Of a DNA stretch of 64,000 bases, positions 430-40,324 are shown piece after piece. The DNA comes from Shigella phage ShigP1, in the sequence record PQ818763. One strand, given 5' to 3'. How positions within the stretch are numbered: position 1 is the first letter of the stretch; every line of letters starts with the position of its first letter. The translations under genes were made by a program, and so were the position numbers. The notes beneath the pieces are model-generated. The model did no database searches, had not been told where the DNA came from, and was given only the letters and a program-made list of their open reading frames with translations.

Positions 430-1372
430 TTAAAGAGCGGTAAATCTATCAGTGTGCTTTCTCACACTATGCAACTGTTAGCCGTTGTTACGCTTTTCAC
501 TGAAGCGATGATTTGCTTAGTGAGTGCTCATTATGAATCATGTTGTTTTCGCTGTCAACCGCTTTTTAATCTTTTTCGTCGTTCCCGCTATTGGGAGGAT
601 ATATCAATCAGCTTTATTTGATTGAAGATTAAGCGGTGAGGCTTAACTTATGACTCATGTTGTTAAAGAGCGTTTAGCCTTTTAAAGTGTCTGCTAATCA
701 CTGTCACATTGAAGGCTTACTGATTCATTAACAGGCCGCCTACACCTGAACTAATCGCTGCACTATGTGCCACCTTTCCCGCGATACGTTGATTTGGGAA
801 CTAGTTAGCGATGTTTTGCTAACTTGTGGTTAGTATGGACTACTTTAACCACGTTTGCAACTCTTTTTATCATCTTCTTTTAATTCCTTTCCCTTATCTC
901 GCGTGAATCTATGCGAAAGGGCAAGATGATAAGTCTGATTTGTCTTTCAGGGAATCTAGTGCGCTTTCAAGCATTAATCTTTTGAAAGTATCGAACAAAT
1001 AAGGCTTATTGATATTGCTTATTGTCCGCCTGCGTCACGTATGAATCAGGAATCAATTCTACCGATTAACTGAGCGCCTTATAGTAATGACGTCGCCGCC
1101 ACCCGTAAGACAAATCATATTTTTAAAGAGCGGGATTTTTTAAGTCATCGCTGACTATGCTCACTATATATCAGGCTGTTTTCGGTGTCAATACTCTTTT
1201 TAAGAATATTTTCACTTTCTAGCCTGATTTTTAAAGAGCGGGGCAAGTTTCCTTGCCTTGTATGTTTTACATCGTACCCGATGAAATGAAGTATACATTA
1301 ATCAGTGAGGGATGCAATAGGGTAAAACAAAATATTTTAAACTTTTTCACTATAGGAAGGTAAAAGAGCGGG
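430..1372. repeat. Five same-orientation copies of an 11-nt motif TTAAAGAGCGG (about 430, 663, 1123, 1231, 1363) in a 1.5 kb non-coding region
   Basis: Read directly: ttaaagagcgg at 430-440, 1123-1133, 1231-1241; ttaaagagcgt at 663-672; aaaagagcgg at 1363-1372. No long ORF across the region. Confidence 0.6.
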
Positions 1373-2580: not shown

Positions 2581-3453
2581 TTACTTACTAGCCTTAATAC
2601 AGTTGGCTAAACTAACGTGAACGGTATAAACAGCGTTATTAGCGTTATTGTAAACAGTGGTAGCAATCATCGACTCATTGATCGGGCCATAACTCACTAG
2701 ATTGGTTACAGCTTTAACGTCTTCGTAACGTTGTACAGTGCCAAATGTAACCATATCCGAGTCACTATCGGTGCGCTTGAGAACTAGATCATTGTTAGGC
2801 TGATTGTCTAGTGTCTTAGACTGAAAGAGAACGCCATCATTAGTTACGTTGCTAAACTTCATTTTTAATACAATAGTACTTCCATCACTATCCGCACCGT
2901 TGCAAATCATCCAACCCTTATTGATGGAACTAGAGAAGACACTAGCGGCATCAGTTGCAGGAGTAGAACTAGCGATAGCTTTATCAGAAAGAGATGTGAC
3001 CAGTGCACTAACACCGATCGCTGCAACCAGTGCATAACTTGCCAGATTAACAGACTTCATAATCTTACTTGCAACAGTAGGCTTGATTGGCTGTTTCTTG
3101 TTTTTCTTATTCCATGCTTCAACCATGACAGACAAGCGGGATAATTCAGCTTTCACATCGCGGCATGACTCAGGCCAATCCTTCTGATTCCAGCTATCTA
3201 AATTTGCTTGAATGTAGCAATTAATAGCGTCCTGCATATTGGTAAAACCGTTCTCTTTGAACGTGCTTTCATCTTCACACTGTAAAGCGTTCGCAGTAGA
3301 GTTAATGATCAAGCAAGCCAGCATTACAGAGTTTTTGAATCCTTTACGTGCACTTTCGTTTTCCATCCACGCATCAGGACTACCAACGGTTAAGCCTAAA
3401 GAGGAAAGGCTTTCGTTTGCTTTGTTCAAGTGGTTAATCGCTACTTTAGACAT
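2581..3453 (-). CDS. Hypothetical membrane protein (single central TM helix)
   Basis: ORF of 290 aa; central hydrophobic stretch VNLASYALVAAIGVSALVTSL separates two hydrophilic domains. Confidence 0.45.
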   Translation of the reverse strand: MSKVAINHLNKANESLSSLGLTVGSPDAWMENESARKGFKNSVMLACLIINSTANALQCEDESTFKENGFTNMQDAINCYIQANLDSWNQKDWPESCRDVKAELSRLSVMVEAWNKKNKKQPIKPTVASKIMKSVNLASYALVAAIGVSALVTSLSDKAIASSTPATDAASVFSSSINKGWMICNGADSDGSTIVLKMKFSNVTNDGVLFQSKTLDNQPNNDLVLKRTDSDSDMVTFGTVQRYEDVKAVTNLVSYGPINESMIATTVYNNANNAVYTVHVSLANCIKASK

Positions 3454-4236
3454 TTGATATTCCTTATGGTTGATGAAAACTACAAACTACAATCGCAACT
3501 ATATAATAAAGGAAAAGGCTGTCAACCATTTATTTTCTAACTTTCCTATAACTCACTGAAAACTAAAGGGATTTAATTTACTAAACTTTCCATACTCAGA
3601 GAATCAGCTTACTTCTTATTGTTACTTTATAACACTACGGGTAACAGACCAACAGATCAGGACAAACGGGGATACAACAACCGCAGAACAGACCACGGGG
3701 AAACATAGGCAGATAGTGCGGTAGTAATATACCACTTAAATAATTGTATAACTCAAACATCAAAGACGTTCGCTACGCTCACAAAGGCACGCTGAAAAAA
3801 GAAAAGAATAAAAGCAATTATTAAAAGAATTACAATCATCCACTTAATTAATACATATATCATTATTGCACTCATAATCATTACTATTGAAACTATTTAC
3901 ATTCAAACTATGGGGGATGTGGGCTATTACTTATGGGTATTATTAGCCTCTTATGGTAGTGCCTGTACTAGTTTATACAGTGCTAGCCTTTCTCTCACTC
4001 TTTAAAGGGGAACTAAATAAACGGGTAGCTAATGAATAGGATGGTATACACGGGGGAATAATTACGGGGAGTAGGCACGGGGAAAGGTGGAACGTGGGAA
4101 TGGGCTTAAAGGCATTGCCAATAACCCTTTTTTTAAATGAGGACTCCCCCTTTTTAGGAAACGCGCGGCGAGCGGCTAGCCCCATTCGGTCAAATCAGAA
4201 TTTTAAACTCTTATATATAAGGTTGAAAGAGAACTT

Positions 4237-4401
4237 ATGTGGAAAATTAAGTTAATCATTAAGCAATTCAAATGTGATCATGAGTACTATCGGATACGCA
4301 AAGCTTACGGGGATGAAAGAGTTCACACCCTTTATAAGTCCACTTGGAGATGTAGTAAATGTGGAAAGCTTAAACACAGCACATGGATGGATAGGCCTTA
4401 A
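4237..4401 (+). CDS. Small Cys/His-rich (zinc-ribbon-like) protein, 54 aa, absent from the ORF track
   Basis: Manual translation MWKIKLIIKQFKCDHEYYRIRKAYGDERVHTLYKSTWRCSKCGK...; C-x-H ... C-x2-C spacing; lies inside the repeat-rich leader. Confidence 0.3.
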   Translation: MWKIKLIIKQFKCDHEYYRIRKAYGDERVHTLYKSTWRCSKCGKLKHSTWMDRP

Positions 4402-4614
4402 CGTGACATGGCCTTTATGTGATAGTGCCTTAATGTGAAGTAGTCATCAAAGATGACGTCCCCTTTATGTCTTAACTTTATCAGAGGGATGTATGACAGA
4501 AGATGAATACGGTAGCTTCTCTGAAGAAGACTACGAAAATGAATACAGGTATTCTCACGGGTGTTAATGTGAGGTGGCCTTTACGGGTATGTCTTATGAT
4601 GTGCCCTTTATACT
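4328..4614. repeat. Cluster of about 6-7 short direct repeats, (G)CCYTTTATGTGA and TTAATGTGARG variants, just upstream of the late module
   Basis: Read directly: ccctttat 4328-4335; gcctttatgtga 4411-4422; gccttaatgtgaag 4427-4440; cccctttatgtc 4460-4471; gtgttaatgtgagg 4561-4574; ggcctttacggg 4576-4587; gccctttatact 4603-4614. Confidence 0.5.
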
Positions 4615-4635
4615 CTTATTCAGAGGAGAAGAATT

Positions 4636-4890
4636 ATGAATTTAGTATTAGACTTTTTATCAGAGATGGTGCCTCGGTTCAGAACGGAGACATACGCTTT
4701 CGTGGTCAACAGTGACTCTGAAGAAGGGATGGAAGCTACTTGCTTAGGCCGTCTTGTTGATTTAGATGATGAAACAGATTTCGATATTACAATTGATGTA
4801 AGTAGTTTTGGTTGGCTCTTCTTCAGAGCATTCCGCACTTACAGAAAAGAAACATACAAAGATTACAGCAAGGGAGATACAAATGAATAA
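4636..4890 (+). CDS. Acidic hypothetical protein
   Basis: ORF of 84 aa; first plus-strand gene after the non-coding region. Confidence 0.4.
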   Translation: MNLVLDFLSEMVPRFRTETYAFVVNSDSEEGMEATCLGRLVDLDDETDFDITIDVSSFGWLFFRAFRTYRKETYKDYSKGDTNE

Positions 4891-5515
4891 TTTAATCCAA
4901 GCGATGGACCTTAACGATTACAATTCACAGCTATGTCGCTCTGGTTGTAGCTTACAGCATTTAGAAACTATGGGAAATGTTTCAGGATTGGCTGTACAAG
5001 ATTTATATAGTGGAAGTATTCTTAAACCAACTATTACGGAGAAGAAAGATATGATGAGTTTAGTAGAACAATACCGTGGACTTCAAGTCGGTACTATTGG
5101 TGATAAATATGAGAACTACTACAAAGATCGCTCAAAAGTACTTGAAGAAGTTGCACGGGCTAAGCCTTCTACTCTGGAAGTAGTTGAATACGAATCTACT
5201 AAACATGATCACCTCCCTGACTATGCTCGTGCAATGATTGAGATGATTGAAGAAGCTGAATACGAAATGCTCCATGATTATATTACCTCCAAAGATGAAT
5301 GGCATCGTGATGTTAGAATCGAAGAGGATGGTACAGAAACAATTACGTGGATTCACAAGAGTGAGCTAGTAGACGACGCACTGCGAGACTACGAAAAATT
5401 TTTGGTCGACGGCTCTATTCTTTTAGAGGAAGAGAAGGGTGCAGAACTTCCGTGGGAAGGTGAGACGATTGCTCTAGGTAAGATGTTTAACCTGTCCGTT
5501 GGTGATTGTAAGTAA
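4883..5515 (+). CDS. Hypothetical protein (start moved to internal Met)
   Basis: Internal ATG at 4883 preceded by AGGGAG; overlaps the upstream stop in an ATGAATAA arrangement. Confidence 0.45.
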   Translation: MNNLIQAMDLNDYNSQLCRSGCSLQHLETMGNVSGLAVQDLYSGSILKPTITEKKDMMSLVEQYRGLQVGTIGDKYENYYKDRSKVLEEVARAKPSTLEVVEYESTKHDHLPDYARAMIEMIEEAEYEMLHDYITSKDEWHRDVRIEEDGTETITWIHKSELVDDALRDYEKFLVDGSILLEEEKGAELPWEGETIALGKMFNLSVGDCK

Positions 5516-5571
5516 TATTTGCCTCCATTGGGAGGCTTTTTGTGTTGTTGATAATGTAGAAGGAGTATAAA

Positions 5572-6045
5572 ATGTTTGGAGAAAACGGAGAACTCACGCC
5601 TGCACAGGTAGCTGAGATTACAGGAAGATTACCCGGAGTAACGGAAGAACTCGAAAGCCGTGGTATGAACCCAAGCAATGGGAAGTTTCAAAAGGGAAAT
5701 AAATTCGGACGACCCAGAGGTAGTAGAGGTAAACTGACACAATTAATGTTGGACCGTGTTGCTGCAAGTCATTTGTCTCCTGATGAAGTGTTAATTCAAA
5801 TTTACGAAGATCCTAATATTCCACCCGATCTTAGATTCAAGGCTGCATCAAAAGTTGCAGATCTGGTATATCCTAAGGCGGCCTCTGTTGAAGTTAAGAT
5901 TGAGGAAGAGAATGTAATCAACGAAGAATCACTGAATGCACAAATCAAGGACTTCTTGACTGGAGCACTTGGTGTTGACGTTATGCCTCCAGAAGAAGAT
6001 AACTCTGAGGACGCTGAAAAGGGGGAGGAAGCGGACGAGAGTTAA
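5572..6045 (+). CDS. Candidate terminase small subunit
   Basis: 157 aa, immediately upstream of the large terminase; basic Gly-rich stretch GNKFGRPRGSRGK and acidic C-terminus; strong SD (GAAGGAG). Confidence 0.45.
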   Translation: MFGENGELTPAQVAEITGRLPGVTEELESRGMNPSNGKFQKGNKFGRPRGSRGKLTQLMLDRVAASHLSPDEVLIQIYEDPNIPPDLRFKAASKVADLVYPKAASVEVKIEEENVINEESLNAQIKDFLTGALGVDVMPPEEDNSEDAEKGEEADES

Positions 6046-6206
6046 GTAAAGGAAACAGGGAGCTGTCGAAGATCATCTGATTAATAATCTGAGGATTGTT
6101 ATAGTTTTATTGCCACGATGTTCTTTTGCAGTGTACCCTTGTAGTGGAGAGGGGAGGTTCTTTGACGAAGGGACTTTCCCTTTTCTATTTTTAAACTGGA
6201 GGAAGT

Positions 6207-7748
6207 ATGTCATTAGATAAACAAATTTATGAAGCTCTAACTGGTAACAACCTTAGTGTAGAGGAAAAGAAAGCACTATTGAATATGTTGAAAGAGCGTG
6301 ACCAATGGAGGAAGTATAATAAGATTTTGTCTTTCAAGGCGTATGACTTCCAAAAGAAATTTTATGCAGCAGGATTGAAGCATCGCTTTAGATTCTTGTG
6401 TGCAGCGAACCGTGTTGGTAAATCTTATAGCGAGGCATACGAGTTTGCTTGTCATGTCACAGGTCGCTACCCAACTTGGTGGACAGGGTATAAATTTAAA
6501 AGACCTATCTTAGCATGGGCAGTTGGTATTACAGGGGATTCCACAAGGAAAGTATTGCAAAAGGAGTTGTTTGGTACACCTATCGGAAAGGATACAAATT
6601 TATTAGGGACAGGTGTCATTCCTCGTGATGCTATCGTCATTGACACGATAGAACGAGATGGTAACAAACTTCAAATCGTACAAATCAAACATCAAAACGA
6701 AAGAGGAGAGTTTGACGGTTTAAGTACATTAGAATTCCGTTCAACCCAACAGGGTGAACACACATTGATGGGTGCAACAGTTGACTACATTTGGTTAGAC
6801 GAAGAAGATCCATACGAGTCTATGGCTATATTCGCACAGTGCGTCACACGTACACTCACAACTAAAGGTCTAGTTACAATTACAGCTACACCAGAGAACG
6901 GTTTAACTGAACTGGTAGATAAATTTATGAAAGGTGAAGGGGATGAGAACACAGGTTCTCTATATTTCCAGAACGCTTCTTGGTGGGATGCTCATGCAGA
7001 CCTAGGTGGACACATCACTGACCAAGATATAAAAGATATGACTGAAGGTATTCCAGCGTGGCAGTTAGAGATGCGTTCGAAAGGTATGCCATTGTTAGGA
7101 AGTGGTTTGATTTATGATGTATCGGATGACACAATTAAATGTGAACCATTCGAAATTCCTGATACGTGGAAACGTGTCTGTGCAATTGATATTGGTATTG
7201 ATCACCCAACTGCTGCTGTTTGGACAGCTTACGATGCAAACACGGATACTATCTATGTTTACGACTCATATAAAGAAGGTGGCTTTACTCCAGTGTATCA
7301 TGCTCCAGCTATTAATGGTCGTGGTCAGTGGATTCCTGTCATCCTACCGCATGATGCGGACAATATTGAGAAAGGTAGTGGTTCATCTGTTGCTCAATTC
7401 TATAAGAATGCAGGAGTTAACGTACAGAGTGAGACCTTCTACAACAAAATTGGAATGGATGGTAAAAAGAACTTCTTTGTAGAACCCGGAATCACAGATA
7501 TCCGAGAAAGAATGATGAGTGGACGCTTTAAAATCTTTAACACAGCTGCTAACGCTAAGCTATTCGAAGAGAAAGCTAGATATCACCGTAAGGTTGGTAA
7601 GATTATTAAAGAACATGATGACTTAATGGATGCAATGCGCTATTCAGCGTGCTCTGTTACACATCGTGGTCGCTCTAAACATGACGTTAGCTACGGAAGT
7701 GCTTCTCTGTATGAGGCAAACGTAAGCAGATGGAATCAGAGTTACTAA
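6207..7748 (+). CDS. terL: Terminase large subunit
   Basis: 513 aa; P-loop-like AANRVGKSY, Walker-B-like YIWLDEEDP, nuclease-domain acidic residues (AIDIGIDHP); followed by the portal gene. Confidence 0.85.
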   Translation: MSLDKQIYEALTGNNLSVEEKKALLNMLKERDQWRKYNKILSFKAYDFQKKFYAAGLKHRFRFLCAANRVGKSYSEAYEFACHVTGRYPTWWTGYKFKRPILAWAVGITGDSTRKVLQKELFGTPIGKDTNLLGTGVIPRDAIVIDTIERDGNKLQIVQIKHQNERGEFDGLSTLEFRSTQQGEHTLMGATVDYIWLDEEDPYESMAIFAQCVTRTLTTKGLVTITATPENGLTELVDKFMKGEGDENTGSLYFQNASWWDAHADLGGHITDQDIKDMTEGIPAWQLEMRSKGMPLLGSGLIYDVSDDTIKCEPFEIPDTWKRVCAIDIGIDHPTAAVWTAYDANTDTIYVYDSYKEGGFTPVYHAPAINGRGQWIPVILPHDADNIEKGSGSSVAQFYKNAGVNVQSETFYNKIGMDGKKNFFVEPGITDIRERMMSGRFKIFNTAANAKLFEEKARYHRKVGKIIKEHDDLMDAMRYSACSVTHRGRSKHDVSYGSASLYEANVSRWNQSY

Positions 7749-7809
7749 AGTAAGGGGGAGGTTTGTCCTCCCTTCTTTTATTTAAGCTATCAACCGAGGG
7801 AGAGAATCG

Positions 7810-10053
7810 ATGGCTAAGCAAAAATATAGTGAAGAGGTGTTGGACGAGTTACGTGTTGACCTTCAACGTCGTTTTAATTATGCTCAAGGCTACGTGGACA
7901 TGGCTGTTAAGGGCTATGCTCGTGAAGCTTGGGAATATTTCTATGGTAACTTACCTGCACCAGTAACTGCTGGCAGCTCTAGTTGGGTAGATCGTACTGT
8001 TTGGGAATCTGTTAACGGTACATTGCAAGATATTATTAACGTATTCTGTTCTGGTGATGAAGCAGTTACTTTCGTAGCTGACAACCAACAGGATTCTGAT
8101 GCTGCTGACGTAGCAACTAAATTAGTTAACCAAATTCTTCTGCGTGATAATCCGGGATACAATATTATCTCTTCTGCTGCACAAGAATGTCTGGTTACTC
8201 GTAACTCTTTTATCAAGTATTATTGGGATGAACAAACTTCTACTCAAACTGAAGAAGCTGAAGGTGTACCACCGGAAGCATTGGCTGCATATGTTCAGGG
8301 ATTAGAAGCTGGTGGACTCAAGAATCTGGAAATCTTCACTGAAGAAAATGAAGATGGTACAGTAGATGTTAAAGTTACTTACGAACAAACCGTTAAACGT
8401 GTGAAAGTTGAATATGTTCCTTCAGAGCAAATCTTTGTTGACGAACATGCTACCTCTTTTGCAGATGCACAATACTTCTGTCATCGTGTACGTCGTTCTA
8501 AAGAAGATCTGGTTGCTATGGGATTCCCTAAAGATGAGATTGAAGCATTTAACGACTGGACAGATACAATGGATACCACTCAATCTACAGTTGCTTGGTC
8601 TCGTACTGACTGGCGTCAGGATATTGATGCTGATATTGGTACAGATACCGAAGATATCGCTTCTATGGTTTGGGTTTATGAGCACTATATTCGTACTGGT
8701 GTTCTAGATAAGAATAAAGAGTCTAAACTCTATCAGGTTATTCAAGCTGGTGAGCATATCCTTCACACTGAAGAAGTAACTCACATTCCGTTTGTAACCT
8801 TCTGCCCGTATCCGATTCCGGGTTCCTTCTATGGTCAATCGGTCTATGACATTACGAAAGATATTCAAGATTTACGTACCGCGTTAGTTCGTGGTTATAT
8901 TGATAACGTCAACAATGCTAACTATGGTCGATACAAGGCTCTTGTTGGTGCATACGACCGTCGCTCTCTGCTTGATAACCGTCCCGGTGGAGTGGTTGAA
9001 ATGGAACGTCAGGACGCTATTGACCTGTTCCCATACCATAACCTACCTCAAGGTATTGACGGCCTCCTAGGCATGTCTGAGGAGCTTAAAGAGACACGTA
9101 CAGGTGTAACCAAACTAGGCATGGGTATCAACCCTGATGTGTTTAAGAATGATAACGCTTATGCAACCGTAGGCTTGATGATGAATGCTGCACAGAACCG
9201 TCTCCGTATGGTATGTCGTAACATTGCTCACAATGGTATGGTTGAATTGATGCGTGGTATTTACAACCTTATCAGAGAAAATGGTGAAGTTCCTATCGAG
9301 GTACAAACCCCTCGTGGTATGATTCAGGTAAATCCAAAACAATTACCAGCTCGTCACAATCTTCAAGTTGTTGTAGCTATCTCTCCTAACGAGAAAGCAG
9401 AACGTGCACAGAAACTGATTAGCTTGAAACAGCTGATTGCAGCAGATGCACAGTTAGCACCTCTCTTTGGTTTGGAGCAAGACCGTTACATGACTGCACA
9501 GATCTTTGAGTTGATGGGTATTAAAGATACTCATAAATATCTTCTGCCTCTGGAACAGTATCAGCCTCCAGAACCTTCTCCGATGGAAATCCTCCAGCTC
9601 GAGATGACTAAAGCACAGGTTGAGAACGTACAGGCTTCTTCTCAGAAGATGATTGCTGATGCATTCGACCAACGTGAACGTACTACATTCGAACAGCAGA
9701 AAGCTGCGGATGAATTAAGTCTACGTCAGGAAGAGTTGCAATTCAAGCAAGAAAATGCAGCAGATGCAATGACTCTGGAAAACCGTAAAGAAGATAACAA
9801 TGCTACTCTGGAACAAGCTAAGCACAAGTTAGCTCTTATGCAACAGCAGGTCCGTCAGTATGAATCTGTACTGAAAGAATTGCAGATGGTTATGTCTCAT
9901 CAGGTAGACCAAGAGAAGATTGTTCAGCAAGCTCGTGTTCAGGATAAAACTTTGGAACTCCAAAAGAAAGAAGCTAATGTAACTAAGAAAGAGCAACAAG
10001 CTTCTCTCAAAGATTCACGGATTCCAGGCAAACGTCTTGGAAGTAAAAACTAA
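7810..10053 (+). CDS. Portal protein
   Basis: 747 aa, directly downstream of terL and upstream of scaffold/capsid; SD GGGAGAG before the ATG. Assigned by synteny and size. Confidence 0.7.
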   Translation: MAKQKYSEEVLDELRVDLQRRFNYAQGYVDMAVKGYAREAWEYFYGNLPAPVTAGSSSWVDRTVWESVNGTLQDIINVFCSGDEAVTFVADNQQDSDAADVATKLVNQILLRDNPGYNIISSAAQECLVTRNSFIKYYWDEQTSTQTEEAEGVPPEALAAYVQGLEAGGLKNLEIFTEENEDGTVDVKVTYEQTVKRVKVEYVPSEQIFVDEHATSFADAQYFCHRVRRSKEDLVAMGFPKDEIEAFNDWTDTMDTTQSTVAWSRTDWRQDIDADIGTDTEDIASMVWVYEHYIRTGVLDKNKESKLYQVIQAGEHILHTEEVTHIPFVTFCPYPIPGSFYGQSVYDITKDIQDLRTALVRGYIDNVNNANYGRYKALVGAYDRRSLLDNRPGGVVEMERQDAIDLFPYHNLPQGIDGLLGMSEELKETRTGVTKLGMGINPDVFKNDNAYATVGLMMNAAQNRLRMVCRNIAHNGMVELMRGIYNLIRENGEVPIEVQTPRGMIQVNPKQLPARHNLQVVVAISPNEKAERAQKLISLKQLIAADAQLAPLFGLEQDRYMTAQIFELMGIKDTHKYLLPLEQYQPPEPSPMEILQLEMTKAQVENVQASSQKMIADAFDQRERTTFEQQKAADELSLRQEELQFKQENAADAMTLENRKEDNNATLEQAKHKLALMQQQVRQYESVLKELQMVMSHQVDQEKIVQQARVQDKTLELQKKEANVTKKEQQASLKDSRIPGKRLGSKN

Positions 10054-13031: not shown

Positions 13032-13099
13032 TTTTAAGACCTATACAAGCTAGTGTGTAATGTATATTCTTTGTCTACATATAACAAGGAGGACAACCT

Positions 13100-13861: not shown

Positions 13862-16264
13862 ATGATCGTTTATAATAACCAAGCACCTGATGCAGTGAAT
13901 AACGTTGGGCAGTTTGGTGCTACTGAAGGCTCTATCGGGGCTTATAAGCAAGCAGCAGAATATGCAGCTGACTCCAAATATTGGGCACTGTTAGCAGAAT
14001 CTAAGTTTGGTACAATTGATGATTTAATCGCTGAAGTAGAACGTCTATATCAACAGGGTGTTCTGATGAAGCAGGATATTGAAGATCTTAAGCAGGATTT
14101 TAAGGATCAAGATGCTCGTTTGATGACTCTGATTGCCCAAACCAACGCAGCAGTATCGGATGCTAATAATGCCGTTGCTCTCATTAACCAAAAACTTATT
14201 GAAGTCCAGAATCAGCTTGATGTTCTGTTAGGAATGTCTGTTGATGTAACAACTCTCCCTCCGGGAACTCCGGCTACTGGCTCTTTTAATCCTAACACTG
14301 GTGTAATCTCTTTAGGTATTCCAGAAGGTGATCCCGGAAAAGATGGTTCTGTTAAGGATTTGGATACAGCACCTACAGGTGTTCCAGAGCTAGGTGATTT
14401 AGGTTTCTATGTTGACAAAGATGACAATACCGTCCACAAAACTACTCTAGATAACATTGCTAATTTAATCCCATCTGTTCGTTCTGTCTCTATTAACGGC
14501 GGTCCAGCTCTTGATGGAGAGGTTGCTCTAACACTTAACAAAGAGACGGTAGGTTTAGGGAATGTTCTGAACGTTGCTCAGTACAGTCGTCAAGAGATTA
14601 ATGACAAGTTTGATAAAACCACCAAGACATATCAATCTAAAGCAGAAGCTGATGCTGACGCTCAGTATCGCCAAGTTGGTGAGAAGGTCTTAGTTTGGGC
14701 AGCTACTAAGTATGAATTTTATACTGTTGCTGCTAACAAAACATTAACTCCTGTTAAAACTGAAGGTAGAATTCTTACTGTTAATTCCCGTTCTCCAGAC
14801 TCCAGTGGTAATATTGACATTACCATTCCAACAGGAAACCCTTCTCTATATCTTGGTGAGATGGTAATGTTCCCTTATGACCCAACGAAGAATATCTCCT
14901 ATCCGGGCGTTCTTCCAGCCGATGGTCGTCTAGTGTCTAAAGAGTCTGCTTCAGATTTAGGCCCATCCCTTGTCAGTGGACAACTTCCTGTTGTTTCTGA
15001 AACTGAATGGCAAGCAGGGGCTAAACAATACTTCTCTTGGGGTAAATTGGCAGATGGTATTACCGATGCAGATTCTACTAATTTTATCAACATTCGACTT
15101 CCTGATTGGACTGGAGGGGAGGCAATAAGAGCACCAGATTCTGATAAAGACTCTCAGTACAATGGGTCTGTACAGGCTCAGAAACCTTATGTTGTTACTG
15201 TAAATAACCAAGCTCCTGATGAGATTACTGGTAATGTGAACATCTCCAGATCAATTTTAGGTGCTGCCGCTTCTGGTACAAACTCTGATATAACATCCCT
15301 CACGGGACTCACTACAGCACTGTCTGTCACACAAGGAGGCACTGGAGCTAAAGACGCTGCTAGTGCTCGTTCTAATCTAGGTCTNNNNNNNNNNNNNNNN
15401 NNNNNNNNNNNNNNNNNNNNNNNNNNNNNNNNNNNNNNNNNNNNNNNNNNNNNNNNNNNNNNNNNNNNNNNNNNNNNNNNTGCTGCTAGTGCTCGTTCTA
15501 ATCTAGGGTTGGGAAGTGTTTCCACTCTGGATAATGTACCTATTGCTAATGGTGGGACAGGGGCTGGAGATGCTGCTGGTGCAAGGTTCAATATTGGAGC
15601 GCTAAGTAACACCCCAGCAAATTCAGGCGTAGGTGGTACTGGGGATCGTGTCCAACATGCCTCCGGGAACGGCCTGTTTACTTTAGACTTGTTTAACTGC
15701 TACTGGTATATGCAGCCAGAGGATACTAACTTCTGGATTGCCCACGGTGTGTCATATGCAGGGTCTGGTGGCGAAGCCTCACAATACGGTCGCATATCTT
15801 ACGCAATAAAGATTGCAGACGGAACAATAAAATATGTCCATTGTCTTACAAACAAAAACACCACTGTTGATGTAAACGGATTTATCAAAGCGGCATCTCC
15901 GGTAGTTCATATTTACTCCGACGGTCGATATGAGACGAACGAGGAATCTGAGGGGGTTAATGTCATTCGGCAAGGTGTTGGTGAGTACTTGATTACCGGT
16001 TGCCTTGGCTTAAACGCAGATGCAAAATGGGGAGGCATTGACGGCGGCTTTGAAATCCCTACTGACCGCAACAAACAACCTAGGGTTTGGCTGGACTATG
16101 AGATTAAAGAAGATGGTTCTATTTTAGTTAAAACCCATCACAGAACCCATCCAACCTCTCCGGTTTTTGCTAGAAATGAGATAGAAGGTTTTTCTGACGG
16201 TGATCCTATTGATATCCCGAGTGATGCTTTTATTTCAGTTCGTGTTGAAATGCCTTCTGAGTAA
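13862..16264 (+). CDS. Tail fibre protein with phage tail-fibre repeats (GGTGA..AA.AR.NLG); interrupted by an assembly gap
   Basis: 800 aa as read; repeated motifs TQGGTGAKDAASARSNLG and NGGTGAGDAAGARFNIG; N-terminal coiled-coil region. Confidence 0.65.
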   Translation: MIVYNNQAPDAVNNVGQFGATEGSIGAYKQAAEYAADSKYWALLAESKFGTIDDLIAEVERLYQQGVLMKQDIEDLKQDFKDQDARLMTLIAQTNAAVSDANNAVALINQKLIEVQNQLDVLLGMSVDVTTLPPGTPATGSFNPNTGVISLGIPEGDPGKDGSVKDLDTAPTGVPELGDLGFYVDKDDNTVHKTTLDNIANLIPSVRSVSINGGPALDGEVALTLNKETVGLGNVLNVAQYSRQEINDKFDKTTKTYQSKAEADADAQYRQVGEKVLVWAATKYEFYTVAANKTLTPVKTEGRILTVNSRSPDSSGNIDITIPTGNPSLYLGEMVMFPYDPTKNISYPGVLPADGRLVSKESASDLGPSLVSGQLPVVSETEWQAGAKQYFSWGKLADGITDADSTNFINIRLPDWTGGEAIRAPDSDKDSQYNGSVQAQKPYVVTVNNQAPDEITGNVNISRSILGAAASGTNSDITSLTGLTTALSVTQGGTGAKDAASARSNLGXXXXXXXXXXXXXXXXXXXXXXXXXXXXXXXXXAASARSNLGLGSVSTLDNVPIANGGTGAGDAAGARFNIGALSNTPANSGVGGTGDRVQHASGNGLFTLDLFNCYWYMQPEDTNFWIAHGVSYAGSGGEASQYGRISYAIKIADGTIKYVHCLTNKNTTVDVNGFIKAASPVVHIYSDGRYETNEESEGVNVIRQGVGEYLITGCLGLNADAKWGGIDGGFEIPTDRNKQPRVWLDYEIKEDGSILVKTHHRTHPTSPVFARNEIEGFSDGDPIDIPSDAFISVRVEMPSE
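15385..15480. other. Run of 96 N (assembly gap) inside the tail fibre gene, flanked by an identical 24-nt repeat
   Basis: gctgctagtgctcgttctaatctagg occurs on both sides of the N-run; the frame is preserved (96 = 32 codons). Confidence 0.95.
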
Positions 16265-39908: not shown

Positions 39909-40324
39909 ATTTTAATTTCCTTATTTAATTTGAAAGATTGTTGCTCTCTTTGAGCGGTTATGTATAGTATACATTACGCTTATACCGATAAGAGTACTAT
40001 ATAATATAAGTATCTTTGGTAGTAGATATAACACACTAGTAATGTATATATTGTATAGCTGATAAAGTTATTGCAGGCTTGTATATTGGGCAATTCACAG
40101 AATCCCTTGCAAGTACCGAAGGGCAGGAGCCACCTGCGAGATAAAAATAGAGAATTAAGGAATCCTTGATTTAGGTTGTAGGGACTCCTAGGGACTTTGA
40201 TTCTCTATTTAAAAGAATATTAATTACTTATTACCTAAATAATTAACTAACCTACTTAAACCAAATTCAAGAATAATAGATAAAAAGATTATTCCTAAGA
40301 AAGCTAAAAAGTAAAGGATATAAG
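39909..40324 (-). promoter_or_regulatory. ORF-free AT-rich region of 416 bp with an 11-bp inverted repeat and a short direct repeat; candidate promoter/operator or origin
   Basis: aaatagagaat (40145-40155) and attctctattt (40200-40210) are reverse complements; tagggact is duplicated between them. Confidence 0.35.

Follow-up and report, generated by a model that had tools for sequence, protein, structure and literature searches.

A conserved array of short same-orientation repeats near the left genome end of phiEco32-like phages

Between gene 1 and gene 4, near the left end of the genome, phiEco32-like phages carry an array of short repeats that share the core CCTTWA and run in one orientation. 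We followed this array from the Shigella phage ShigP1 (sequence record PQ818763), of which a stretch of 64,000 nucleotides, referred to here as the window, was analysed. The array is real, statistically significant and far above chance; it is a conserved and apparently unannotated cis element whose general kind is known. Judged from sequence, its best explanation is a set of conserved cis-acting recognition sites in the same orientation. Our tentative first choice for their role, to which we give a probability of roughly 0.3, is that of an operator or roadblock for a phage protein, possibly gp1, which would control the left-end operon.

Left-end context of the array

Positions 3000-9000 of the window are 95-98% identical to many Escherichia phages of the genus Kuravirus (EK5, SU10, ES17, phiEco32 and others). 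Nucleotide 1 of phiEco32 and position 1 of SU10 align to window position 3985, and the SU10 and ES17 records open at ~3985. As these starts coincide and a direct terminal repeat (DTR) of 193 bp is reported in phiEco32, SU10 and YF01 (PMC4281155, PMC9965538), the window is, by sequence comparison, a circularly permuted assembly of a Kuravirus genome of the phiEco32/SU10 type. The left physical end of the genome is at 3985 and its right end at 3984 or lower; the left-end genes follow the DTR (Table 1). The repeat region at 4328-4614 is 344-630 bp from the left physical end; the array itself starts 218 bp inside the DTR boundary and spans 218-435 bp from the right DTR boundary. The DTR has a conserved repeat family of its own, ACGGGG, separate from the CCTTWA array, so that packaging is not obviously dependent on the latter.

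Table 1. Features of the left genome end in the window (positions are those of the window).
Feature	Position	Strand	Basis or remark
Direct terminal repeat, single copy in the permuted assembly	3985..4177	+	Alignment with phiEco32 and SU10
Conserved sigma-70-like promoter candidate of the left-end operon, GTCAAA-17 bp-TATATA	4189..4217	+	Cross-genus alignments
Gene 1, 54-aa basic protein with a CxH...CxxC zinc-ribbon-like pattern	4237..4401	+	Translation; PHROG 7696, function unknown
Outlying unit CCCTTTATA inside the gene 1 coding sequence	4328..4336	+	Pattern match
Sub-array A: three contiguous 16-bp units GCCTTAACGTGACATG, GCCTTTATGTGATAGT, GCCTTAATGTGAAGTA	4395..4442	+	Pattern match, Tandem Repeats Finder
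Inserted palindrome GTCATC-AAA-GATGAC	4443..4457	+	18-bp insertion relative to phiEco32
Unit CCCTTTATG	4461..4469	+	Pattern match; 31 bp before the small-ORF start codon
Accessory 24-aa acidic ORF MTEDEYGSFSEEDYENEYRYSHGC, splits the array	4493..4567	+	Translation
Sub-array B: degenerate GTGTTAATGTGAGG (4561-4574), GCCTTTACG (4577), degenerate GTCTTATGA (4592-4600), CCCTTTATA (4604)	4561..4612	+	Pattern match and degenerate units
Gene 4, 84 aa, acidic, first gene downstream of the array	4636..4890	+	PHROG 12698, function unknown
Gene 5, 210 aa, acidic	4883..5515	+	PHROG 12176
Terminator-like hairpin	5521..5546	+	Between gene 5 and P6
Late promoter P6 element TAATGTAGA	5552..5560	+	Match to published P6
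Gene 6	5572..6045	+	No Pfam or PHROGs assignment
Large terminase	6207..7748		Local map

The left-end block runs in the order promoter, gene 1, array, (small ORF), gene 4, gene 5. The promoter candidate is nearly invariant between genera in the alignments, is listed as a potential sigma-70 promoter in SU10 Table S2, and its equivalent is annotated as a promoter in the record of phage 4E8; a sigma-70 consensus scan of positions 3400-5700 missed it. Gene 1 directly precedes the array in 18 of 18 phages. Searches of Pfam, PHROGs and NCBIfam gave no function for gp1, its homologues form a single cluster in a large protein database, and its single-sequence AlphaFold model is poor (pLDDT 70.6), with nothing found by Foldseek against the PDB (best E = 7). 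Gene 4 was detected by tblastn in 93 phage records, all of them E. coli/Shigella phiEco32-like phages. The "ABC transporter" label of gene 5 comes from PHROG 12176 only and finds no support in Pfam or NCBIfam, and neither gp5 nor gp6 matched a PDB sequence.

The earlier note on this DNA had placed the repeats immediately upstream of the late module and near the small terminase gene. The first placement does not hold, as the late module truly starts at P6 (TAATGTAgA; PMC8948821 Table S3, also SU10 Table S2), past genes 4 and 5 and the terminator. Gene 6, which resembles the small terminase of PaP3 by profile comparison (PMC9965538), is not adjacent to the array but 960 bp downstream of it, with the same two genes and the terminator in between.

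Units, spacing and significance

The unit pattern SCCTTWAYR, that is S-CCTT(T/A)A-YR, matches at 4328, 4395, 4411, 4427, 4461, 4577 and 4604, bearing out the earlier count of about seven related short repeats in some 290 bp. All seven matches within 4328-4612 are on the plus strand, with none on the minus strand there. Over both strands of the whole 64-kb window the pattern occurs 15 times, compared with an expectation of 6.8 +/- 2.4 that reached 15 in no shuffle, and the eight copies in the other 63.7 kb are scattered on both strands at about the chance number. Seven units in 285 bp stand against a maximum of two per 300 bp in 300 first-order Markov simulations. Tandem Repeats Finder independently of the pattern reports a period-16 array at 4394-4438 with the consensus GGCCTTAATGTGACAG. 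Altogether the window holds 7-9 units at a period of 14/16 bp; two degenerate units, GTGTTAATGTGAGG at 4561 and GTCTTATGA at 4592, complete the list, and with them both the count of about seven and the two consensus forms given for the family prove accurate.

The array falls into two clusters, 4395-4469 and 4561-4612, with the 24-codon ORF (4493-4567) in between. The copy at 4328 is read in the frame of gene 1 as ACC CTT TAT AAG, is found only in Kuravirus sensu stricto relatives and is probably incidental; the copy at 4395 shares bases with the stop codon of gene 1. The description of the repeats as lying between the zinc-ribbon ORF and the plus-strand genes thus fits most of the units, but not the first of these two, which is within gene 1, nor strictly the second. 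The distance from CCTTWA to the ATG is 31 bp both for the small ORF (4462 to 4493) and for gene 4 (4605 to 4636). The palindrome GTCATC-AAA-GATGAC is missing from the equivalent of 4443-4457 in phiEco32 and is present at other array positions in KarlSchell, KBNP1711 and JacquesWildberger. In sub-array B, the block GGCCTTTACGGGTAGGTCTTATGATGTGCCCTTTATAC is conserved among the Kuravirus relatives.

Conservation among relatives

The comparison covered 18 Gordonclarkvirinae, the homologous region being taken from 17 phages besides the window, and included the genera Kuravirus, Suseptimavirus (SU7, EK010, ECBP2) and Nieuwekanaalvirus (KBNP1711). In all 18 phages, 4-8 CCTTWA units in one orientation lie in the interval from the stop codon of gene 1 to the start of gene 4, and every genome has a contiguous run of at least three same-orientation units at the same locus; the run orthologous to sub-array A counts 3-5 units throughout (18/18). 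When hexamers were ranked de novo, without a prior pattern, CCTTTA came out top or tied for top in 18 of 18 spacers. Neighbouring units are 14-16 bp apart in 62 of 95 cases, and the step depends on the core: after CCTTAA the next unit follows at 16 bp in 28 of 35 cases, whereas CCTTTA units are mostly 14 bp long. The unit can be written S-CCTT(T/A)A-YR-TGR plus a variable tail, and the pooled consensus is a-n-n-t-g-S-CCTTWA-Y-R-t-G-a.

When 11 arrays were aligned, identity was 97% in the core columns against 81% in the inter-core columns (Mann-Whitney p = 4e-5), a comparison that is partly circular because the aligner anchors on the cores. BLAST, at a sensitivity of ~65-70% identity, aligned the distant genera only in the initial ~290 bases of the query, which hold gene 1 and its upstream region, and not over the array, and yet these genera keep the array although their spacers no longer align. 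Inserts between units differ by phage (a small acidic ORF, a block of ~80 bp, a GTCATC-N3-GATGAC palindrome), modules of up to ~180 bp are tolerated, and the inserted modules are flanked by units, with indel and module boundaries coinciding with units. The small acidic ORF is present in phiEco32 (in a longer form), KarlSchell, FH3 and 1-6af and absent from SU10, Paul, SU7 and others. The last unit is 23-56 bp from the gene 4 start, varying between genera. As core, orientation and local spacing are kept while the spacers diverge, it is these that are under selection, and not total length or copy number. The earlier note had named a lack of conservation in related phages as speaking against its proposal; the array is kept across the subfamily, in all 18 phages, and this point does not tell against it.

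Beyond the subfamily, a search of IMG/VR for related loci returned only phiEco32 and NJ01. A scan of IMG/VR with a three-unit pattern gave 35 loci, KBNP1711 and 34 unrelated ones that are perfect tandem repeats with identical spacers and therefore a different kind of thing. In the record of Salmonella phage 7-11, the first 2.5 kb contain neither CCTTWA or a comparable array nor genes 1-5, the first gene of that record being the gene 6 homologue, and the first 1.5 kb of the LUZ24 record likewise contain no CCTTWA or comparable array.

Promoter, coding and RNA features of the repeat region

The middle/late promoter element of phiEco32 has been defined experimentally as tAATGTAtA (PMC8948821, PMC12276001), and six gp36 promoters are published, those of phiEco32 genes 6, 13, 26, 40, 58 and 68 (P6, P13, P26, P40, P58, P68). 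Promoters of this kind have a single element with AATGTA centred near -11.5, and their transcripts, which depend on gp36 holoenzyme, start 6-8 bp downstream. In the window they are found at 5552, 13058, 29761, 39968(-), 46027(-) and 50263(-). Compared with this element, the window units read TAACGTGAC, TTATGTGAT, TAATGTGAA and TAATGTGAG, none of them with AATGTA; the hexamer is found in 0 of the 18 arrays, five of which do not have even AATGT. The late promoters suggested earlier are not supported: the six known promoters are elsewhere and the late module is ~940 bp downstream. On consensus, conservation and the published promoter maps we rejected a gp36 late promoter. The two other roles suggested earlier, operator sites and a packaging site, both agree with the layout of the region. 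Within 4300-4640 the consensus scan of 3400-5700 found no TTGACA-(16-18 bp)-TATAAT-like match, and a sigma-70 promoter was also rejected.

SU10, Paul, SU7 and others do not retain phi32_2 and phi32_3, the ORFs annotated across the repeats in phiEco32, or the window ORFs 4274-4438 and 4503-4715, and coding across the repeats was discarded on this ground; the sole recurring ORF in the repeat region is the 24-aa ORF between the clusters. No Rfam family matched the array region at E <= 1, its fold has a z-score of only -2.0, and the consensus fold of eight relatives is weak (-12 kcal/mol, covariation term -0.01), which led us to set aside a known RNA family or a conserved RNA structure. Host-factor sites (a CRP half-site TGTGA, IHF, a sigma-32 -10 element, a T4 MotA box), sought by eye, fit few units and are not conserved in the relatives.

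Discussion

In the operator or roadblock model that we put first, a small sequence-specific phage protein would bind cooperatively along the units on DNA, cooperativity being suggested by the tandem arrangement of the units, and the bound array would set the share of transcription from the promoter inside the DTR boundary that gets through to genes 4 and 5 and to the optional small ORF. As binder, the basic zinc-ribbon-like gp1, encoded immediately upstream, would be the best candidate, and the control may extend to translation of genes 4 and 5. Here we infer protein binding, the identity of the binder and the transcriptional output, all three. Consistent with such a role, the array is embedded in the operon, downstream of a promoter-like site and of gene 1, a unit stands 31 bp before both start codons in the window, and the inserted ORFs are flanked by units. 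Co-inheritance points the same way, gene 4 being confined to phiEco32-like records and the first 2.5 kb of 7-11 being free of genes 1-5 and of the array alike. Against it, direct repeats at a 14-16-bp spacing do not keep helical phase, and most classical operators are palindromes. Also unfavourable are the variable distance from the last unit to gene 4 between genera, the low-confidence gp1 model that has no structural neighbours, and the family searches, none of which gives a function; no repressor-like or ribbon-helix-helix gene was identified for the array.

The nearness of the array to the DTR and the parallel with the SRL repeats of T7 would fit a function at the DNA end equally well. It is possible, although not probable, that the repeats are a genome-end array like the SRL of T7 and T3, a platform for concatemer processing, packaging initiation or DNA entry; in one variant the units would be candidate sites for the PaP3-like small terminase gp6. 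In T7, about 12 copies of CCTAAAG at 13-bp spacing occupy nt 175-340, just inside the 160-bp terminal repeat, with a similar arrangement in T3, and the array described here also begins a short way (218 bp) inside the DTR boundary. Small-terminase regions typically have several sites in one orientation (lambda cosB R sites, P1 pac hexamers), and the terminase genes lie 1-1.6 kb downstream of the array. The array is nevertheless separated from the DTR by a promoter and a whole gene, has no matching array across the DTR as T7 has in its SRR and SRL, and tolerates its large inserts between units, while the DTR possesses a conserved repeat family of its own, which could serve the terminase. Left of the DTR, the search for an SRR-like partner gave a faint likeness at 3925-3965 (CTTATGGGTAT, GCCTCTTATGGTAGTGCC) that is not conserved in five relatives. 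The left DTR boundary, at which GCT meets AGCCTTTC, weakly resembles a unit, but 4E8 and KarlSchell have AGCCTCTC there and lack this AGCCTTT likeness. LUZ24, which is grouped with PaP3 (PMC3517423), is a DTR phage without such an array in the first 1.5 kb of its record. On balance the regulatory and the genome-end explanations fit about equally, and we keep the regulatory one as first choice. That the array and the co-inherited gp1 form an unrecognised nucleoprotein device at the genome end, which would make it the second case, independent of the first, of the "SRL" type known from T7, we regard as unlikely.

The remaining explanations account for less of what is observed. CCUUWA in the intercistronic RNA between genes 1 and 4 might bind a protein or act in the manner of a translation enhancer; all units are on the transcribed strand, near ribosome-binding sites and within what is presumably a polycistronic transcript, and gp1, small and zinc-ribbon-like, could act like the zinc-finger translational activator Com of Mu. 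An exact TTAACTTTA is at 4472-4480, upstream of the Shine-Dalgarno sequence of the small ORF, and we take it to match the "epsilon" enhancer of T7 gene 10. With no Rfam match, an unremarkable fold z-score, a weak consensus fold and a covariation of about 0, we consider this RNA-level motif rather improbable. Very improbable is the use of the units as promoters, whether as weak variants for the gp36 sigma factor or as sites for another form of RNA polymerase. The units TAATGTGAA (4430) and TAATGTGAG (4564) match tAATGTAtA at 7 of 9 positions and retain AATG, the bases that gp36 touches in the cryo-EM structure, and the 23-56 bp from unit to ATG are within the range of known gp36 promoters (20-42 bp). 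However, the AATGTA hexamer is missing from every array, the orthologous units in relatives read TTAACATGA, TTAATATGA or TTGGTATGA, so that the likeness to TAATGT is not conserved, and the upstream TAAGACCTA common to P13 and P26 is absent from the array units. Moreover, the phiEco32 array has the same two TAATGT units and only six gp36 promoters are published for that phage, and 3-5 elements at 14-16-bp spacing cannot all serve as promoters. Iterons are typically direct repeats of ~15 bp that share one orientation, but a replication origin here is scarcely credible, as no AT-rich unwinding region is adjacent (GC 0.39-0.41 across 4300-4800), no initiator-like gene is beside the array, the neighbouring proteins being small and without assigned function, and the replication genes are tens of kb away on the other strand. 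To an absence of function, the repeats being leftovers of tandem duplication or microhomology "linkers" for module recombination, we give the least credence of all: the copy number does vary from 4 to 8 and indel and module boundaries do fall at units, but the core is retained across genera whose spacers no longer align, and no genome has fewer than three contiguous same-orientation units at the locus.

We did not find the array described in the literature on SU10, SU7, YF01, 7-11, promoter inference and the gp79/gp36 structure; the primary phiEco32 papers (Savalia 2008, Pavlova 2012) were outside this search and may mention repeats. The regulatory table for SU10 deals with the upstream regions of CDS1, CDS5 and CDS6 and does not include the spacer between genes 1 and 4. 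A literature search for SRL/SRR repeats of the T7 type and for CCTAAAG repeats gave nothing useful.

phiEco32 is a reference system for phage-encoded sigma factors and for the takeover of host RNA polymerase, and its left-end block (genes 1-5) has neither an assigned function nor an assigned regulation. A cis element so strongly conserved points to an unrecognised DNA- or RNA-binding activity, and as its six-base cores could be scrambled without touching any gene, it offers an easy handle. Should the array and gp1 indeed form a device at the genome end, it could gate the expression or the entry of left-end anti-host genes or mark the end at which concatemers are processed. Spurious ORF calls, phi32_2 and phi32_3 among them, are accounted for by the array. 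Kuraviruses serve in phage therapy and engineering, where payloads or deletions might be placed at exactly this site; the array is best treated as a probable functional element.

Comparison with known repeat systems

The gp36 promoters belong to the same phage group, and two window units share TAATGT with tAATGTAtA. The "stoperators" of mycobacteriophage L5, orientation-dependent repressor sites inside operons, and the tandem operators of the ribbon-helix-helix proteins omega, ParR and MetJ are, like the array, asymmetric same-orientation sites between genes or tandem units; the stoperators of L5 are dispersed genome-wide, whereas the array is a single cluster. The small-terminase sites of lambda cosB (R3-R2-R1), P1 pac (hexamers) and SPP1 (pacL/pacR) consist of several short sites within 100-250 bp near a DNA end, on the side of the terminase gene. 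The array differs from these in being farther from the cut site, with a gene included, and in not being adjacent to terS.

The SRL and SRR repeats of T7 and T3 differ from the array in several respects. They abut the terminal repetition on both sides of the concatemer junction, whereas the array is 218 bp off and on one side only, and T7 has repeat copies inside the terminal repeat itself. Unlike the SRL of T7, the array lies between operon genes, is interrupted by an ORF and is preceded by a promoter and gene 1, and its core CCTTWA is different from CCTAAAG, with no homology between the two. To our knowledge the SRL arrays of T7 have no established function, so that the resemblance names a class and not a mechanism. 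The resemblance itself is of several kinds. T7 and T3 are likewise coliphage podoviruses with short exact terminal repeats, and the head-to-tail array of a short core that defines the SRL/SRR of the T7 group is what we find here (CCTTWA, at 14 and 16 bp). In both, a core of 6-7 bp, pyrimidine and then A-rich, recurs head-to-tail at a non-helical period (13 vs 14/16 bp), and both are found no more than a few hundred bp inside the left repeat. As the array is compact and conserved and is found in a tractable coliphage with well-studied transcription, the function of an end-proximal array could be testable here, and if it is functionally related to the SRL of T7 and T3, it would provide another system, besides T7 and T3, for studying the role of these repeats.

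Terminal repeat and left genome end

At the two edges of the 193-bp terminal repeat the sequence reads ACAGTGCT/AGCCTTTC on the left, which is kept in five relatives, and GAGCGGCT/AGCCCCAT on the right (the first slash in each marks the edge). As GCT/AGCC recurs at both, the sequence suggests a terminase nicking motif common to the two edges. Within the repeat lie four further short repeats, CACGGGGGAA, TACGGGGAG, CACGGGGAAA and ACGTGGGAA, forming an ACGGGG(A/G) family that is distinct from the CCTTWA array and is also kept by the divergent phage 4E8. This is probably the family that the earlier note had placed in the first non-coding region, and it is a better candidate than the CCTTWA array for a terminase recognition element.

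The promoter-like GTCAAA-17-TATATA is nearly invariant between genera, and phage 4E8 carries it twice through duplication. Located just inside the terminal repeat, it implies that the left genome end would have an inward-reading host-polymerase promoter of its own, in addition to the known early promoters of the right end.

Features of the terminal repeat, the array and the gp36 (phiEco32 sigma factor) promoters
Feature	Window position	Remarks
Terminal-repeat boundaries	3982-3988 and 4175-4181	Common reading GCT/AGCC
ACGGGG(A/G) repeats	4045-4103	Within terminal repeat; four copies, ~13-16-bp spacing
GTCAAA-17-TATATA, promoter-like	4189-4217	Immediately inside terminal repeat
GTCATC-N3-GATGAC palindrome	4443-4457	In relatives' loci: L007 ~1145-1160; L009 ~830-845; L018 ~800-815
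Highly acidic 24-aa ORF with preceding element	4472-4567	MTEDEYGSFSEEDYENEYRYSHGC
TAAGACCTA upstream of P13 and P26 elements	13035-13043 and 29738-29746	
Extra exact TAATGTATA copies	1292-1300 (-) and 40040-40048 (+)	Outside six published gp36 promoters

gp36 promoters and neighbouring genes

In both P13 and P26, which are late promoters, TAAGACCTA stands exactly 14 nt 5' of TAATGTATA; it is absent from P6 and from the middle promoters. TAAGACCTA may be the reported -35-region contact of the gp36 C-terminal domain. One extra TAATGTATA copy, at 40040, stands back-to-back with P40. Since the start codon of gene 6 lies only 11 nt past the end of the P6 element (5552-5574), P6 transcripts starting 6-8 nt past the element would be nearly leaderless, losing the AGGAG ribosome-binding site.

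Gene 5 (4883-5515) encodes an acidic product of 210 aa, for which the label "ABC transporter" is widespread in relatives and derives from PHROG 12176. No support for this label came from Pfam, NCBIfam or PDB, and it looks like a propagated mis-annotation. Further along, 96 consecutive N (15385-15480), masked or unresolved, fall within an 800-aa ORF (13862-16264).

Inserts in the array

The position of the palindrome within the array differs from phage to phage, which would fit a mobile mini-element or an additional dyad binding site. Only some of the relatives have the 24-aa acidic ORF, and the phiEco32 version is 22 codons longer. The ORF has a good Shine-Dalgarno sequence; ahead of it, at 4472-4480, stands an exact TTAACTTTA, a match to the "epsilon" translational enhancer of T7 gene 10.
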